Source: Candidatus Moraniibacteriota bacterium
GTDB lineage: Bacteria; Patescibacteriota; Minisyncoccia; Moranbacterales; UBA1568
Length of the DNA stretch: 64,000 nt
Direction: 5' to 3'
NCBI GenBank assembly: GCA_030648835.1
Contig: JAUSGT010000002.1
Span: forward strand, 12,108-76,107
Shown: positions 8,062-40,111 of the stretch, in pieces
How the letters are laid out: every line of letters starts with the position of its first letter
How positions within the stretch are numbered: the stretch's first letter is position 1
Program-made: the position numbers and the translations under genes
The notes under the pieces: model-generated
Seen by the model: the letters and a program-made list of their open reading frames with translations, nothing else
The model's database searches: none
What the model was told of the DNA's origin: nothing

Positions 8062-8322
8062 TTGTTAAAAATAATCAATAATTAACGGGAAACAACATTG
8101 TTTACATGTACCAAAGGCGAGTGAGTATTTTAAGTAATACGCACTTGGGAGGAGATGCGGGATCCAGAGGGTGGTGTTTCTTCTACAAACAGGTTTCTTG
8201 GCAGGTACCCTGGATCCTCGGGTCAAGCCCGAGGATGACAAGAGAAAAGGAATTCTCTGTTAGAAAACAAAAAACTATAAACAACGCTCTAGTATCTAAC
8301 TGTTATTTGTCGACTGACAGCT

Positions 8323-16873: not shown

Positions 16874-17626
16874 CTATTCAAGATTGTCCCACACCCGCTG
16901 GACGTCGGGATGATCGTTTATCTGCTCGAAGAAAGCATCGTACTGCTCGCGGGCTTTGGCGTCGAGGGCGACGGTCTGGATGGGACGATAGGAAAGCCCG
17001 GCAGATTTGACAGCGTAACCTTTTTCTTCCAGGACATCTTTCACTTTCTTCAGATTTTCGAAAGGGACGTAGAGGGCCAGGATATTTTCTTCGATATCTT
17101 CCGTATCTTCTGCCCCAGCATCGATAGCATCGAGTTCTGCGGTATCGCGGTCTTTTCCTGAATGATCGATGATGATTTCTCCGACTTGCTTGAAAAGGAA
17201 AGCTACCGAACCGATGGCGCCTATTTTCCCATTGGCTTTGGTGAAGAGGGATTTGATTTCGCTCACGGTGCGGTTGCGATTGTCGGTCGTGGTCTGGATG
17301 AGCATGGCGACATTGTCCGGCCCACCCGCCTTCGCAAGGCTACGGACGGGCAAGTACCCTTCGTAGAGAATGTCCTCGATAGTGGCACCATCCTTCAGTT
17401 CCCCGGTGCCGCGCTTGATGGCGCGATCGATATTGTCCTTGGGCATGTTGACGGTTCGCGCCTGGTCGATGGCGAGCCGGAGAGCGAAGTTCGTATCGGG
17501 ATTGCCCCCGCCGTGTTGTGCAGCCACGATAATATTGCGGCCGTATTTGGTGAATACGGCAGCGCGTTTGGCGTCATTAACGTCTTTTTGTCGATGAGTA
17601 GTAGCCCAATGAGAGTGTCCTGACAT
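16874..17626 (-). CDS. yebC: YebC/PmpR family DNA-binding regulator
   Basis: MSGHSHWATTHRQKDVNDAKRAAVFTKYGRNIIVAAQHGG is a near-consensus YebC N-terminus. 250 aa. Confidence 0.9.
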   Translation of the reverse strand: MSGHSHWATTHRQKDVNDAKRAAVFTKYGRNIIVAAQHGGGNPDTNFALRLAIDQARTVNMPKDNIDRAIKRGTGELKDGATIEDILYEGYLPVRSLAKAGGPDNVAMLIQTTTDNRNRTVSEIKSLFTKANGKIGAIGSVAFLFKQVGEIIIDHSGKDRDTAELDAIDAGAEDTEDIEENILALYVPFENLKKVKDVLEEKGYAVKSAGLSYRPIQTVALDAKAREQYDAFFEQINDHPDVQRVWDNLE

Positions 17627-17911
17627 ACTTGAAGAGGAATAGCGAATTTACCCTGTGTAATTGCTCACCATGTGAGCACCCGCGAAGCGGGATTACACTG
17701 GGTGAAGAATATAGAATAAAAAAAGCATGAAACTGAAGAAAATAGAGTATAGCGAATTTTGAAAAAGAAGCAAGCCCCGCACTAACTTTGCTTAATTTCT
17801 CTTAAATAAATACTAAGGATTACACACTCTCTTAATAACAGATAACATAAAGAACAAAAATAGTTTCTGATTGCGAAGCAAAGTTAGTGCGGGGCAAGAT
17901 TGGCCCGACGT

Positions 17912-18490
17912 TTAGATTTTCCGGTCATTGGCATCAATCGGGCATGCTTCCCGGTTTGCTAAATCACGGGAGAGCTGCATAATCGAGTCTTTGACTCGGT
18001 AGGGATCCGGAATTTGCCGAAAGACGAAGCGTTCTTTTTCTCCGGCCGTCTGTACGAAGACGTCGCCGAAGTTGAGTATAGTCGGTATGACGCCCTCGAC
18101 TGTCGTCGTGACGTCTTGGATGCGGGAAAAATCCAGCTCGCTGATTTCCCGTACGAACAACCCCTTCTGTTCGATATTGACGATACGTTCGTTGGTGATG
18201 ACCCAGACATCGAAATAGTAGTCGACCCAGAGGAGGAAACTGAAGAGCCACATAAAGATGAGGAAGGTGTTTTCAGCGAAAGCGAAAAAGCGTTCATTGG
18301 CCGCGTTGATTATTTCCGGAAAAAGGAGCGGAAGGAAGAAGAGACTTCCCAAGAGAAAAAGGGTGAATATGAAGATGATGAGAAAGTGGACCAGTATGTT
18401 GAACCAGTGCCGATGGATGACAGAAAGAATCTCTTCTTTGTCACGCTGTCCCTGAAAATGATAACGGGTGAATTTGTTTTGGTGCGGCAT
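17912..18490 (-). CDS. Membrane protein with bacterial PH (bPH_2/YdbT-like) domain
   Basis: Two N-terminal TM helices followed by a roughly 80-aa bPH-like domain (VWVITNERIVNIEQKGLFVREISELDFSRIQDV). Confidence 0.55.
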   Translation of the reverse strand: MPHQNKFTRYHFQGQRDKEEILSVIHRHWFNILVHFLIIFIFTLFLLGSLFFLPLLFPEIINAANERFFAFAENTFLIFMWLFSFLLWVDYYFDVWVITNERIVNIEQKGLFVREISELDFSRIQDVTTTVEGVIPTILNFGDVFVQTAGEKERFVFRQIPDPYRVKDSIMQLSRDLANREACPIDANDRKI

Positions 18491-18754
18491 ACCCAGCAGT
18501 GAAACTTCGATAACTTTTCTTTGATAGTTATAGAAGATCCGAGTTAATAGTATATTTTTGGTTTACGTTTGATATGTAGAGTCTTTGGGGTCTAATCGAA
18601 GTTTTCCTGCTGGGCATACCCAGTGGAACAACTTCAAATAATTAGAAACGAATAAGCTTTCAAATCACACTGCATATTTTTGTATAATATTTTTTATGAG
18701 AGAGTATACTTTTTTACTTTTGAAGTTGTGCCACTGGGCATACCCAGCTATTTA

Positions 18755-20957: not shown

Positions 20958-21354
20958 GCCATTTCGCTTAACAAGACATTTTGAAGCTTTTCTAAAGACT
21001 GTTTCATCTGTAGACAATTGGGGATCACTATCTTTTGTCCTCAATCGCGGAACTGTTGTCCAGATTTGGGTAGGGTGGTTTCGACTGCGCTATTCCTCGA
21101 CACTTTTCCTTTTCTCGAACTCCTATGCTCGAGAGTTGTCTACAGGTTAAACAGCCTTTGCCTTGTGAAATATCTGACAAATTAATCTTGAATGTGAACA
21201 TATCTATTACCAAACGGAGTGAGTGTAACGAAAGTTTACTTTCGTTTCCGAACGCAGTGCCGGTAAAATCGGTTCTAATACCCGTTATTATTGAAAGAAC
21301 ATCAAAGAAGATTCATATTTGGCAGATTTTTCACGAGGTTTACTTCAGCGGAAT

Positions 21355-21395: not shown

Positions 21396-24300
21396 TTACA
21401 AATCAGTGACGCGCTTCACTTCGTCGAGCGTGGTTAACCCTTCAAGGACACAGAGGATGCCGTCTTGGAGGAGGGTGATCATTCCAAGCGCGACCGCTTT
21501 CTCCTCGATTTCACTGACGAGCGCGCCATGAGCGATGAGCTCGGAGAGTTCTTTGCCGATGAGGAGCGTTTCGGCGATGACCATCTGCCCCGTGAAACCG
21601 GTACCACTACAGGTCGTACAGCCTTTGCCATGAGAGAGTCGCATTTTTTTGGTAAGCGCATCTTTGTCTGGTAATGATGCTAAGACCTTTTTAATAATTT
21701 CCTTTTCGGCTTCAGTTGGAGGGAGAGATTCTTTGCACTTGGCACAGATTTTTCGGACCAAACGCTGAGCCATGAAAAGATTGGCGGTGTTGGCGAGGTC
21801 GTCGTTCGTCACTCCCATCGCGGTCAGGCGGGAGACGACACCCGCAGCCGAATTGGTATGGAGGGTGGAGAGGACGAGGTGCCCGGTACTGGCGGCCTGG
21901 ACGGCAATTTGCGCGGTTTTTTCGTCACGGATTTCACCGATCATCAGAATATCGGGATTCTGGCGCATAAGCGAACGGAGCGCGGTAGCGAACGTATAGC
22001 CCTCGCTCTCTTTGGTTTGGGTTTGGAGGATGCCTTGGATCTGGTATTCGATCGGATCTTCAACCGTGATTATTTTTACTTCGGGCTTATTCAGTTTGGC
22101 GAGAATACTGTAGAGGGTGGAAGTTTTTCCGGAGCCGGTCGGGCCGGTGTTCAAGATTATCCCGTGTGGTTTGCCGATAGCCGCGTAAATATTTTCCAGA
22201 TTTTGTTTGCGGATGTGGAGCGTGTCGAGGTCGAGTTTGACGACGGACTGATTGAGAAGGCGCATGACAATTGTTTCACCGAAACCGCCGAGGATGATGG
22301 AAAGACGGATATCAACGGTATCAGGCTTTTCCTCCCCGGCCTTTTCGATGGTAAGAGAAAAACGACCATCAATGGTACCGGAACGTTCACCCGATTTGAG
22401 CCCGGCCGCCAGTTTGATTTCCGCGATGAGGGTCGGGTATTCGGTAATGGGAATGCGCGCGGCCGTTTGGAGAATGCCATCGATGCGATAGCGTACGTCG
22501 ACCATGTCTCCTTGAGGTTCGATATGGATATCTCCGGCGCGCAAGAGAAGCGCCCCGGCAAAAATAGCAGGCAGGCGTAATTGGGAGTCGATCCCGGCGA
22601 TATAGCCGGCAAATTTTTTGAGTGAAGTGGTTTCTTTTTTTGTTTTTGTGAAAAGGATTTCGGTAATGTGGGTGGAGCGGGAAAGTTCGCTCGGCATCAA
22701 CTCGGCATAGATATTTTGGAGAGATTCTGTCTGATCGGCGACGCGCCAGACTTCATCGAGCGTCGTGATGCCTTCGAGCGCTTTGAGAATTCCATCTTGG
22801 GTCATCGTGATCATCCCGTTTTCCAGCGCGGCGCGGAGAATTTCTTGCTCGTTCCCCATATTGTTGACGATCTTTATGATTTCTTCCGTCATGGTGAGCA
22901 CTTCAAATATGCCGATGCGGCCATGATAACCGGTGAAATTGCATTTTGCGCACCCGACCGCCTTGAAGAGAGAATCCACTTTTTTGGGGAGCGAAATTTT
23001 GGCTTTGGGAGAAATGATGGTGATGAGTTTCAGGATAGAATCAATGGTTTCCCGAGCCGGCGCGTAGGAAGCTTTACAGTCTGGGCAGAGGATGCGCACC
23101 AAGCGCTGTCCGATGAGAGCGTTCAGCGAGGCGGTGATGAGATCCGGCTTGACGCCGAGCTCCATAAAGCGCGGGATGGCGGCAGCGGCGCTGTTGGTGT
23201 GGAGGGTGGAAAATACGAGGTGTCCGGTAAGCGCGGCATTGACGGTGATGTCGGCGGTTTCCTCGTCGCGAATTTCCCCAACAAGAATCATATCGGGATC
23301 CTGGCGGACGATAGCGCGGAGCGCGGTGGCGAAGGTATAATCCTTGTTTTTGGAGATTTCCGTCTGCACGATGCCGGGCAGGGTGTATTCGATCGGGTCT
23401 TCGACAGTGATGACTTTTGTATCCGGCTGGTTGACGTGGTTCAAGAGTGTGTAGAGTGTCGTGGTTTTTCCGGAGCCGGTTGGACCGGTATTCAAGATGA
23501 GACCGTTCGGTTTGGAAATTTGTTTCAAGACTTCTTCATAAGCCAGCCCACGCAGTCCAAGTTTTTCGACATCGACGATGACATCGTCACCGGAAAGGAG
23601 GCGCATATTGATGTTTTCGCCATATTTTCCCGGGATGCTCGAGACGCGGACATCGATGCGCTTCTGGTCGAGATCGACGAAGAAGTGCCCATCTTGAGCT
23701 TCTTTGCGGATATTGAGGCGCATCTTGGCGATCATTTTGATACGTGAGAGGAGGAGGTGGTAGAGCTCTTGGGGGAGATCGCCGACTTCTTGGAGCACAC
23801 CGTCGATGCGGTAGCGCAGGCGGATGGCAGATTCTTCCGGCTCGAGATGGATGTCGCTGGCTCGGAGTTTTCTGGCGCCGGCCAAAATGATTTCCATCGA
23901 ACGCGAGGTGTTGAGCTTCTGACCTTCCTTGAGTGAGATAAGCTCCCCAAAATCTTTTTCGAATTTTTCCAAGTCGCTATCGCCGAGAGAGACACGCACG
24001 AGATCGAGAGCATCGAGAAAGGTGCGCTTGGAGTAATATTCCCAGGCGTGTTTGATGGACTGTTTCGAAATGAGGTACAGCTCTATCTGCCAGCCGTGTT
24101 TCTCGGCGAGAGCTTGGATGTATTCCAGCGCCCCCTTGTTCTTTGGATCGAGAAGAGCGAAACGGGTGAGCGTACTTTTTTTGCTGAAGAGGATGACGTT
24201 CCATTTTTTGGATTCAGCTTCCGGGAGGAGCATGATATCCTCGGCGTTTAAAGGGAAAGCGTGAAGATCGATGTATGAGAAGCCGCTTTTGGCGGCCAAG

Positions 24301-24410: not shown

Positions 24411-24524
24411 ACCATTTGTTTTTTTGTTTGTGCCCCCATTGTACCTCAAAATGAGGTGCTTCGGCAAAAGAAAAACCCAGCTCAAGTAACTGGGTGAACA
24501 GAAACATTGAAAAGGAGGAACTCT

Positions 24525-39488: not shown

Positions 39489-39935
39489 TTATGCGAAAAG
39501 ATAAATAAGAATCAGTGTGAGAAAGAATCCAACGAGCGCTCCGCCGACGACTTCGCTCACACGATGACCGACCCGCTCTTTCAGGCGAGGGAACTTGCTT
39601 TCATCGATTTCTCCCTTGAGTTGGTCAACCAGCATATTGAGGTAGCGTCCCTGGTCGCCCAAGTACATCCGGATACGAGCGGCATCGTCGATGACCAGAA
39701 AGGAGAGCACTGCCGAGAGAGCAAAGGCAGCCGAATAGACTCCTTCGTAATACCCCATCGTGACCAGAAGCGAGATGACGAGAGCGGTATGGGCGCTCGG
39801 CATATGCCCGTGCGTGAAAGCATACTCCACACTCCAGCCATGTTTGATGGAGTAGAGAATAAATTTGATAATTTGGGTAATGATACCGACCGTGATCGGG
39901 ATAAGAAACACGAGGTAGGGCTGGAGAAAATCCAT
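39489..39935 (-). CDS. Divergent PAP2 family membrane protein (DUF212/YuiD-like)
   Basis: 148 aa with 3-4 TM helices. HGHMPSAHTA... resembles the acid-phosphatase/vanadium-haloperoxidase-related DUF212 motif. Confidence 0.6.
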   Translation of the reverse strand: MDFLQPYLVFLIPITVGIITQIIKFILYSIKHGWSVEYAFTHGHMPSAHTALVISLLVTMGYYEGVYSAAFALSAVLSFLVIDDAARIRMYLGDQGRYLNMLVDQLKGEIDESKFPRLKERVGHRVSEVVGGALVGFFLTLILIYLFA

Positions 39936-40111
39936 AAGATTAAAAGTTCTTAAAGTTTACCCTGTGAAATAATCCGCTTCGGCGGATTCCTGCAAAGCAG
40001 GATTTCACTGGGTGAATTATACCACCTTTTTCCTTTTCTGCCGGGGGCGGGCTTTTTCCCGGGGAATTTGCTATACTAGGGGACAAGTAATCAATAATAA
40101 ACAAGAAACAT

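Follow-up and report, generated by a model that had tools for sequence, protein, structure and literature searches.

Palindromic selfish DNA residing in frame within genes, essential ones included, is known from the Rickettsia palindromic elements (RPE), reportedly described by Ogata et al. in 2000; these are said to measure 100-150 bp, to be confined to Rickettsia and relatives, and to have been described originally with no GIY-YIG parent. The known system closest to the elements analysed here, and the only one providing a biochemical precedent, is that of the Ssn nucleases and their NTS/SRM hairpin repeats. SsnA is a 94-aa single-domain GIY-YIG enzyme that binds the NTS hairpin repeat as single-stranded DNA only and cuts upstream of it (PMC11893778), and the ssnA gene is flanked by NTS repeats in an IS-like layout (Chenal et al., 2025, Nat Commun, PMC11893778).

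In this work, we analysed a 64-kb stretch of DNA (the window, meaning the whole stretch) in which two copies of a short palindromic element, A and B, lie upstream of minus-strand genes (Table 1). Our results indicate that both copies are quite probably non-autonomous miniature members of a palindromic DNA family, MITE- or REPIN-like, whose parent form is a cassette encoding a GIY-YIG nuclease. The identity of this family and its derivation from the GIY-YIG cassette are well supported, the family is probably mobile and selfish, and we infer the mechanism of its mobilisation by analogy with described nucleases. The orientation chosen for the element is that in which its right arm reads ...CACTGGGTGAA, which corresponds to the sense of the GIY-YIG gene in full-length cassettes.

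Table 1. Position of the two element copies, their parts, the neighbouring genes and the promoter-like boxes in the window.
Feature	Position	Strand	Basis or remark
Copy A, miniature palindromic element	17647..17706	+	pattern scan, fold, covariance model
Copy A left arm (terminal inverted repeat), TTTACCCTGTGTAAT	17647..17661	+	
Copy A inner hairpin 1, TGCTCAC-CAT-GTGAGCA	17662..17678	+	homologous hairpin in metagenome copy L034
Copy A inner hairpin 2, CCCGC-GAA-GCGGG	17679..17691	+	CCNGC-RAA-GCNGG series, N covaries
Copy A right arm, ATTACACTGGGTGAA	17692..17706	+	in full-length cassettes, the last GIY-YIG codons and the stop (..-T-G-TGA)
Copy B, miniature palindromic element, 61 nt	39956..40016	+	pattern scan, fold, covariance model
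Copy B left arm, TTTACCCTGTGAAAT	39956..39970	+	
Copy B inner hairpin 1, AATCCGC-TTCG-GCGGATT	39971..39988	+	homologous hairpins in L099, L032, L026
Copy B inner hairpin 2, CCTGC-AAA-GCAGG	39989..40001	+	
Copy B right arm, ATTTCACTGGGTGAA	40002..40016	+	equals F-T-G-stop in full-length cassettes
yebC, host of copy A in its leader; outside the element proper	16874..17626	-	
DUF212 (divergent PAP2) gene, copy B in its upstream spacer; outside the element proper	39489..39935	-	
TGGTATAAT, extended -10-like box of the DUF212 gene	40016..40024	-	sequence reading only
TTCGCTATACT, promoter-like box upstream of yebC	17746..17756	-	conserved in relative L119

The sequences and coordinates given to copies A (17647-17706) and B (39956-40016) in the initial annotation proved exact on re-reading, and both copies, which had been placed close to the start of a minus-strand ORF, lie exactly 20 nt upstream of its ATG (yebC and DUF212, respectively). 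Since the two 20-nt spacers between the copies and these start codons are unrelated in sequence, the equal spacing was treated as a coincidence. As had also been reported, copy B carries the ends of copy A with a compensatory change from T-A to A-T at stem position 12, and its inner hairpins are unlike those of copy A in sequence and equivalent in structure, each copy consisting of a 15-bp stem and two hairpins. The end pattern occurs twice in the window, with 0.00 occurrences expected from shuffles of the window, and a covariance model run over the 64 kb with filters off recovered copies A and B only; the density of the element is modest, at 2 per 64 kb.

A three-way junction was predicted for either strand of both copies, with energies on the + strand of -31.8 and -31.6 kcal/mol for copies A and B (z = -7.2 and -6.5), and on the - strand of -28.5 and -27.7 kcal/mol (z = -5.2 and -5.9); either DNA strand, or an RNA copy, would be expected to fold to a compact T-shaped structure of this kind. 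Under DNA energy parameters, 55 of the 74 distinct copies collected from other genomes and metagenomes (see below) fold to a stem with exactly two hairpins, and 3-nt loops account for 78 of 121 hairpin loops, with TTT, TTC, AAA and GAA as the most common. Hairpins of the GCGAAGC type, with a 3-nt loop, are very stable. The loop sequences display no strand bias, GAA/AAA and TTC/TTT being mixed, and give no verdict on the active strand. The inner hairpins form homologous series related by compensatory changes, one including CCTGC/GCAGG, CCCGC/GCGGG, CCGGC/GCCGG and CCAGC/GCTGG, and another AATCCGC/GCGGATT and AATCCGT/ACGGATT. In the 24-sequence alignment (A2) from which the covariance model was built, 86% of the cells are paired, versus 76% in shuffles (none of 500 reaching 86%) and 33-45% with slid partners, and both-sided changes were found in 11 of 12 hairpin pairs. 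The compensatory change reported for the window holds, and the hairpin pairs of the family covary well above controls; such changes fit an RNA structure and single-stranded DNA equally.

The outer helix had been described as imperfect, of which the 15-bp stem holds, whereas the T.T mismatch at position 8 does not stand as a structural feature, given that it falls on a non-conserved position of each arm. Among the copies that were not selected by the search pattern, position 8 is paired in just 12 of 31, while no more than 9 of 74 copies have a Watson-Crick pair at stem position 3; conversely, such a pair is present in 70 of 74 copies at position 12, which the initial annotation had singled out and where three pair types occur. 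We also considered and rejected two readings of the fold, namely the mismatch as a recognised extrahelical base, as position 8 is unconstrained and, in the coding arm, coincides with the third base of a Thr codon, and a hammerhead or other ribozyme, as the junction has no unpaired core nucleotides, in agreement with Rfam.

Scanning of species-representative genomes for the exact pattern TTTACCCTGTG-N25-55-CACTGGGTGAA yielded 19 loci in at least 7 lineages, where we estimate about 2 to be expected by chance, with hosts belonging to Bacteroidota, Cloacimonadota, Bdellovibrionales, Saccharibacteria, Moranbacteria, Parcubacteria and Elusimicrobia, as well as a Gammaproteobacterium. Metagenomes, scanned with no constraint on stem position 12 or on the outermost 3 nt, contributed 85 loci, and both scans together provided 107 copies with 74 distinct cores. 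The prediction of further copies was therefore borne out, more than 100 having been found by pattern search in public collections, with constant ends and a variable interior. These elements are non-coding and measure 52-80 nt in total, with 15-bp arms, and variants among the loci have none, one or two inner hairpins, or an interior that is AT-rich and unstructured. Some copies abut in tandem, ...CACTGGGTGAA being directly followed by CCCTGTGAAAT..., and in one MAG the copies L001 and L009 share an interior that lies in opposite orientations with respect to the asymmetric arm positions (flip/flop). Viral contigs contained 0 matches to the element, and phage carriage is accordingly not supported; the one distant GIY-YIG relative among these contigs has neither the arms nor the YFTG end.

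The initial annotation had allowed that the element might prove to be a known REP/MITE family, which turned out to be right in kind, although no earlier description of this particular family was found in the searchable literature, an absence that is no proof that none exists. Full-text search for the arm sequences returned primers only, and among the literature topics covered (GIY-YIG with MITE or palindromic elements; in-frame palindromes in Patescibacteria; IVS, four-helix-bundle and GxxExxY proteins) the Ssn/NTS paper was the sole relevant one (PMC11893778).

The arms of the element also bound a full-length cassette of about 0.3 kb, where terminal inverted repeats of 15-16 bp (TTYACCCNGTGAAAT ... 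ATTTCACNGGGTRAA) surround one gene, encoding an 84-residue GIY-YIG nuclease, and no other gene was found between these arms. The examination covered seven cassettes, from several phyla (L026; L031; L106, from Marinifilum caeruleilacunae; L107, from Elusimicrobia; L108; and two in L109). Their proteins are 84 aa long with PF01541 as sole domain, and in L031 the arms enclose an ORF of about 85 codons whose product matches PF01541 with E = 1e-14; the nearest solved structures are those of the UPF0213 proteins BH0048 and EF2693, with weak E-values. In all seven cassettes, 20-25 nt separate the left arm, (T)T(Y/G)(A/G)CCCNGTGAAATA, from the ATG downstream of it, whereas the right arm, TATTTCACNGGGTRA, is part of the gene and encodes Tyr-Phe-Thr-Gly-stop (Y-F/L-T-G-stop across the seven). 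This coding role explains the variable positions of the stem, because position 8 is the third base (wobble) of the Thr codon, and the G/A at position 3 reflects the choice of stop, TGA or TAA. Furthermore, an arm subfamily with GTTAAAT/ATTTAAC corresponds to a YLTG C-terminus, with a matching change in the non-coding arm. Of the 120 best homologues, 109 have SY[FL][TIN]G in their final 30 residues, 92 of these ending exactly in SYFTG or SYLTG, and 73 are exactly 84 residues long; the GIY-YIG family comprises 943 clusters at 50% identity (E <= 1e-10).

Several loci display both forms or parts of the cassette. Intermediates shortened by internal deletion are represented by L040, of about 110 nt, and L054, of about 140 nt, in which both arms and the ...RLKSYLTG end persist. 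In L026 and L031, a complete miniature element is present 14 nt further downstream; MAG JACQWV01 holds a miniature element (L018) together with a cassette (L107); and P0094 represents read-through from a fragment of a 23S_rRNA_IVP gene into a cassette. The 64-kb window contains no GIY-YIG gene of the cassette family, and any cognate nuclease of the host organism would be encoded outside it. Descent may also have run the other way, the gene entering a palindrome that already existed instead of the miniature arising through deletion.

According to the mechanism that we propose, the cassette gene would have been replaced in the miniature form by zero to two short GC-rich hairpins, and the spread of the latter would depend on a GIY-YIG nuclease provided in trans by a full-length copy. 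The folded single strand would be the target of this nuclease, which would cut next to it, the way SsnA acts on NTS hairpins in biochemical assays. GIY-YIG nucleases form no covalent intermediate, which makes strand transfer by the enzyme alone impossible; as such a nuclease cannot join DNA, host replication or repair would be needed to finish any insertion and, in what is a speculative step, would complete it without duplication. The positions of copies A and B, 20 nt upstream of yebC and DUF212, would then be a consequence of insertion into short AT-rich spacers, and an effect on the expression of these genes, if any, a by-product.

Alternatively, the element could be a domesticated part of its hosts that is not actively mobile, offering binding or cleavage sites for a chromosomal GIY-YIG nuclease, for instance one that limits recombination of incoming ssDNA, or acting as mRNA stabiliser or terminator. 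The Ssn/NTS precedent, with the role proposed for NTS/SsnA in Neisseria, speaks for such a function, as does the preservation of structure, which indicates continuing selection or recent spread. Copies are also often very near gene boundaries, where they abut start or stop codons in either orientation. However, other insertions look parasitic. Copies sit in frame in uL3 of a Saccharibacterium (L008), where about 27 extra residues including GSPSEISQGETAESGISQGK appear upon alignment to solved uL3 chains, and in IF-2 (L035) and SMC (L037), while a GxxExxY gene (L013/L024) and one of two tandem 94-aa GIY-YIG paralogues (L019) are interrupted by the element, the intact paralogue of the latter representing the empty site. 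In addition, occupancy is patchy between close relatives, and the near-identical ends in distant phyla point to horizontal spread. We therefore consider domestication unlikely as the main explanation; it is compatible with the mobile-family reading and does not exclude it. A further in-frame case was found in a DegT/DnrJ/EryC1 aminotransferase (L056, 883-1014), where two abutting copies with unstructured interiors add about 46 residues.

The information content of the flanks drops to background just outside TTY...RAA, and these were thus taken as the element ends. No target-site duplication of any fixed length of 2-9 bp was detected, the best case being 8 of 71 copies (3 bp) with inconsistent register, and no target consensus was found other than a weak preference for AAAG in the left flank and for C or T as the first base of the right flank. 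Insertion 3' of TTAC, as in IS608, was suggested by L013 and by the comparison with L127, and was discarded since it is contradicted by the filled and empty paralogue pair of L019.

These data bear on a classical MITE, that is, a deletion derivative of an insertion sequence whose 15-bp repeats are bound as double-stranded DNA by a DDE transposase. Small size, lack of coding capacity, terminal inverted repeats, insertion polymorphism and nested or tandem copies would all suit such an origin, and symmetric changes in both arms are expected of a shared protein-binding site. Nevertheless, the copies have no duplication of fixed length, just a GIY-YIG nuclease gene and not a transposase gene lies between the arms, and selection on inner hairpins has no role in DDE transposition, which renders this explanation very unlikely. 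The absence of duplications, the selection on hairpins, the preference for 3-nt loops and the flip/flop interiors fit a single-stranded DNA intermediate.

Regarding the wider context of the copies, in Moranbacteria-like loci (L025, L040, L092 and L016/L095) the elements are embedded on both sides in runs of a short motif, GTTATAAAG / TAAAGTTATAA. L092 has two copies with near-identical flanks of more than 30 nt, so that there may be larger repeat units or a preferred landing motif.

The initial annotation viewed the two copies as a functional RNA or DNA structure in a 5' leader. Structure, covariation and the existence of further copies were upheld, whereas the notion of a yebC 5' leader element was not, given that orthologous leaders are empty and copies occur inside ORFs, beside stops and in tandem. 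In its RNA version, this view holds that the junction is a cis-regulatory structure in the yebC and DUF212 leaders controlling translation or mRNA stability, for which a strong and stable fold, covarying hairpin pairs, and the same orientation and distance to the ATG of both window copies would be suitable. Transcription of copy A is probable from the conservation in L119 of the box upstream of it: the promoter-like sequence TTCAAAATTCG(C/G)TATACTC upstream of yebC is common to the window and this relative and, if real, would place copy A inside the yebC 5' UTR. The TGGTATAAT box of the DUF212 gene is conserved in relatives as TGTTATAAT and TGGTATACT, and the insertion point of copy B is immediately next to it. 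As copy B follows a conserved -10-like box, and a conserved promoter-like box and the yebC ATG enclose copy A, both copies are probably transcribed in part, judging by the sequence. A sigma-70 consensus scan called no promoter at copy A or B, and the DUF212 box is not accompanied by a -35 box.

Yet in the closest relatives, the orthologous leaders are devoid of the element. Copy A is not found in the yebC leaders of L117-L120 (YebC 79-86% identity), and the 61 nt of copy B are lacking in the DUF212-LemA spacers of L122-L126 (LemA 93-94% identity), where the PurC-DUF212-LemA synteny and the spacer flanks are conserved. No association of the element with a gene family was detected among the loci, where copies are distributed over ORFs and 3' ends in both orientations. 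Moreover, pairing is not kept at positions 3 and 8, arm variation tracks the codon degeneracy of a protein C-terminus, and most loops measure 3 nt, none of which favours a regulatory RNA. The comparison with Rfam, which had been proposed as a check, gave no match to the element: at the gathering threshold two tRNAs pass in the whole window, and with E up to 10 nothing relevant appears in the region around copy A. On these grounds, we regard a regulatory leader RNA as highly improbable.

Other repeats were observed in the window. The 11-12-nt sequence (A)ATAGCGAATTT occurs twice, at 17639-17649, abutting the left end of copy A, and at 17749-17759, in the promoter-like box of yebC, and the pair may be a duplication or due to chance. 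Intergenic inverted repeats are located at 17774-17895, 18486-18620, 18609-18748, 20994-21159 and 23976-24113, with arms of 18-30 nt around 80-118 nt of AT-rich sequence; the first of them is a perfect 20-mer adjoining copy A, and two have GCTGGGCATACCCAGC in common. They may correspond to another class of palindromic element or to structured RNA. Finally, the hairpin AAACCCAGCTCAAGTAACTGGGTGAAC (24466-24498) ends like the right arm of the element (CTGGGTGAA), has a simple ACCCAG/CTGGGT stem, and precedes by about 30 nt a + strand ORF with a strong Shine-Dalgarno sequence.

The spacers of the DUF212-LemA region look, from sequence comparison, like hotspots for several kinds of small cassettes. 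In L127, the spot of copy B (window 39936-40111) is occupied instead by a gene for a 114-aa 23S_rRNA_IVP (four-helix-bundle) protein (L127 954-1298), bounded by inverted AAGTTCTTAAAG / CTTTAAGAACTT and GTTTATAAAG-type repeats, and in L122 a 23S_rRNA_IVP-type gene is found after LemA. L123 and L126 contain at the copy B position (1400-1425) the sequence CCTTGCAGGATC, resembling hairpin 2 of copy B (CCTGCAAAGCAGGAT), which may be the deletion remnant of an older copy or a chance likeness. At a different locus, the otherwise syntenic L109 and L110 (3000-5200) differ in the presence of small genes, two 23S_rRNA_IVP and unknowns, beside two tandem arm-flanked GIY-YIG cassettes. An integron attC-like site, or another site recognised as a folded single strand by a tyrosine recombinase, would suit the imperfect palindrome of attC-like size, its variable and sometimes branched centre, and the variation between strains of nearby small-gene cassettes, but it can practically be dismissed, considering that the ends TTYACCC ... 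GGGTRAA differ from the core sites RYYYAAC ... GTTRRRY, that copies abut or sit in ORFs instead of following cassettes at regular spacing, and that, albeit with no systematic search, no integrase was seen beside copies.

Beyond the assignment of copies A and B to a mobile palindromic family, we put forward, as a tentative idea that may well be wrong, that the cassette of about 0.3 kb constitutes an autonomous single-strand "GIY-YIG transposon" of a new mechanistic class, which would move itself and its T-shaped miniatures across phyla without target duplication, even into essential genes. If true, no smaller autonomous mobile element would be known from bacteria. An 84-residue protein, a 60-nt substrate and a cassette in cultured Marinifilum make up a concrete and cheap test system for DNA mobilisation by such nucleases, and new sequence-specific single-strand nucleases would be useful tools. 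These elements also matter for annotation, as they mimic structured RNAs, lengthen proteins (uL3, IF-2, SMC) by about 20 residues, and sit between promoters and start codons.

Regarding other known systems, the likeness to the inverted terminal repeat of AAV, with its T-shape A-B-B'-C-C'-A' and the flip/flop inversion of the interior, is purely structural, as size, sequence, host and replication context differ. With the RPEs, the element shares the tolerance of in-frame insertion. Bacterial MITEs such as Correia/NEMIS and ERIC are likewise non-coding, have terminal inverted repeats and derive from a longer gene-bearing element with identical ends, but the family described here causes no target-site duplication, its parent encodes a nuclease and its inner structure is under selection. 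The resemblance to the REP/REPIN-RAYT system includes short palindromes, doublets and mosaics, a single-copy gene for the enzyme that is bordered by repeats of its own, the absence of target duplication and a presumed single-stranded hairpin substrate. In contrast, the RAYT enzyme is an HUH tyrosine transesterase (IS200/IS605-like Y1) and not a GIY-YIG hydrolytic nuclease, the GTAG or CGTC tag of REP is present in neither arm of the element, and REP families are genome-specific, whereas the ends of the element are near-identical across phyla.

An SRM/NTS-like sequence occurs in the window itself, where TGTCATCCTCGGGCTTGACCCGAGGATCCAG (8207-8240, minus strand), between dnaN and the next gene, fits the consensus; it is the sole SRM match in the window, one of 5 in the 0.8 Mb examined, and has no GIY-YIG gene beside it.

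With respect to the Ssn/NTS system, none of the 107 element copies matches the SRM consensus HGTCWYN(0-2)YYVSBRHN(0-5)WNVSBRGN(0-2)RNCYNB on either strand. The ssn gene is flanked by complete hairpins, while the cassette gene is bracketed by the two arms of a single inverted repeat, of which the 3' one belongs to the ORF, and in L026 and L031 a complete miniature element also follows downstream; unlike NTS hairpins, dispersed copies of the element are three-way junctions of 52-80 nt. The hosts of the element (Patescibacteria, Bacteroidota, Cloacimonadota, Elusimicrobia) also differ from those of Ssn/NTS, and NTS are reported to be rarely intragenic, whereas element copies occur in frame inside genes. 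Conversely, both systems have a single-domain GIY-YIG protein of fewer than 100 residues, whose gene is bracketed by an inverted repeat that is also scattered as hairpin-forming repeats, and in both the repeats co-evolve with the nuclease gene. If this link holds, the pairing of GIY-YIG nucleases with hairpin repeats gains a new motif, a three-way junction with the repeat extending over the stop codon, and new hosts, among them Patescibacteria with their reduced genomes.
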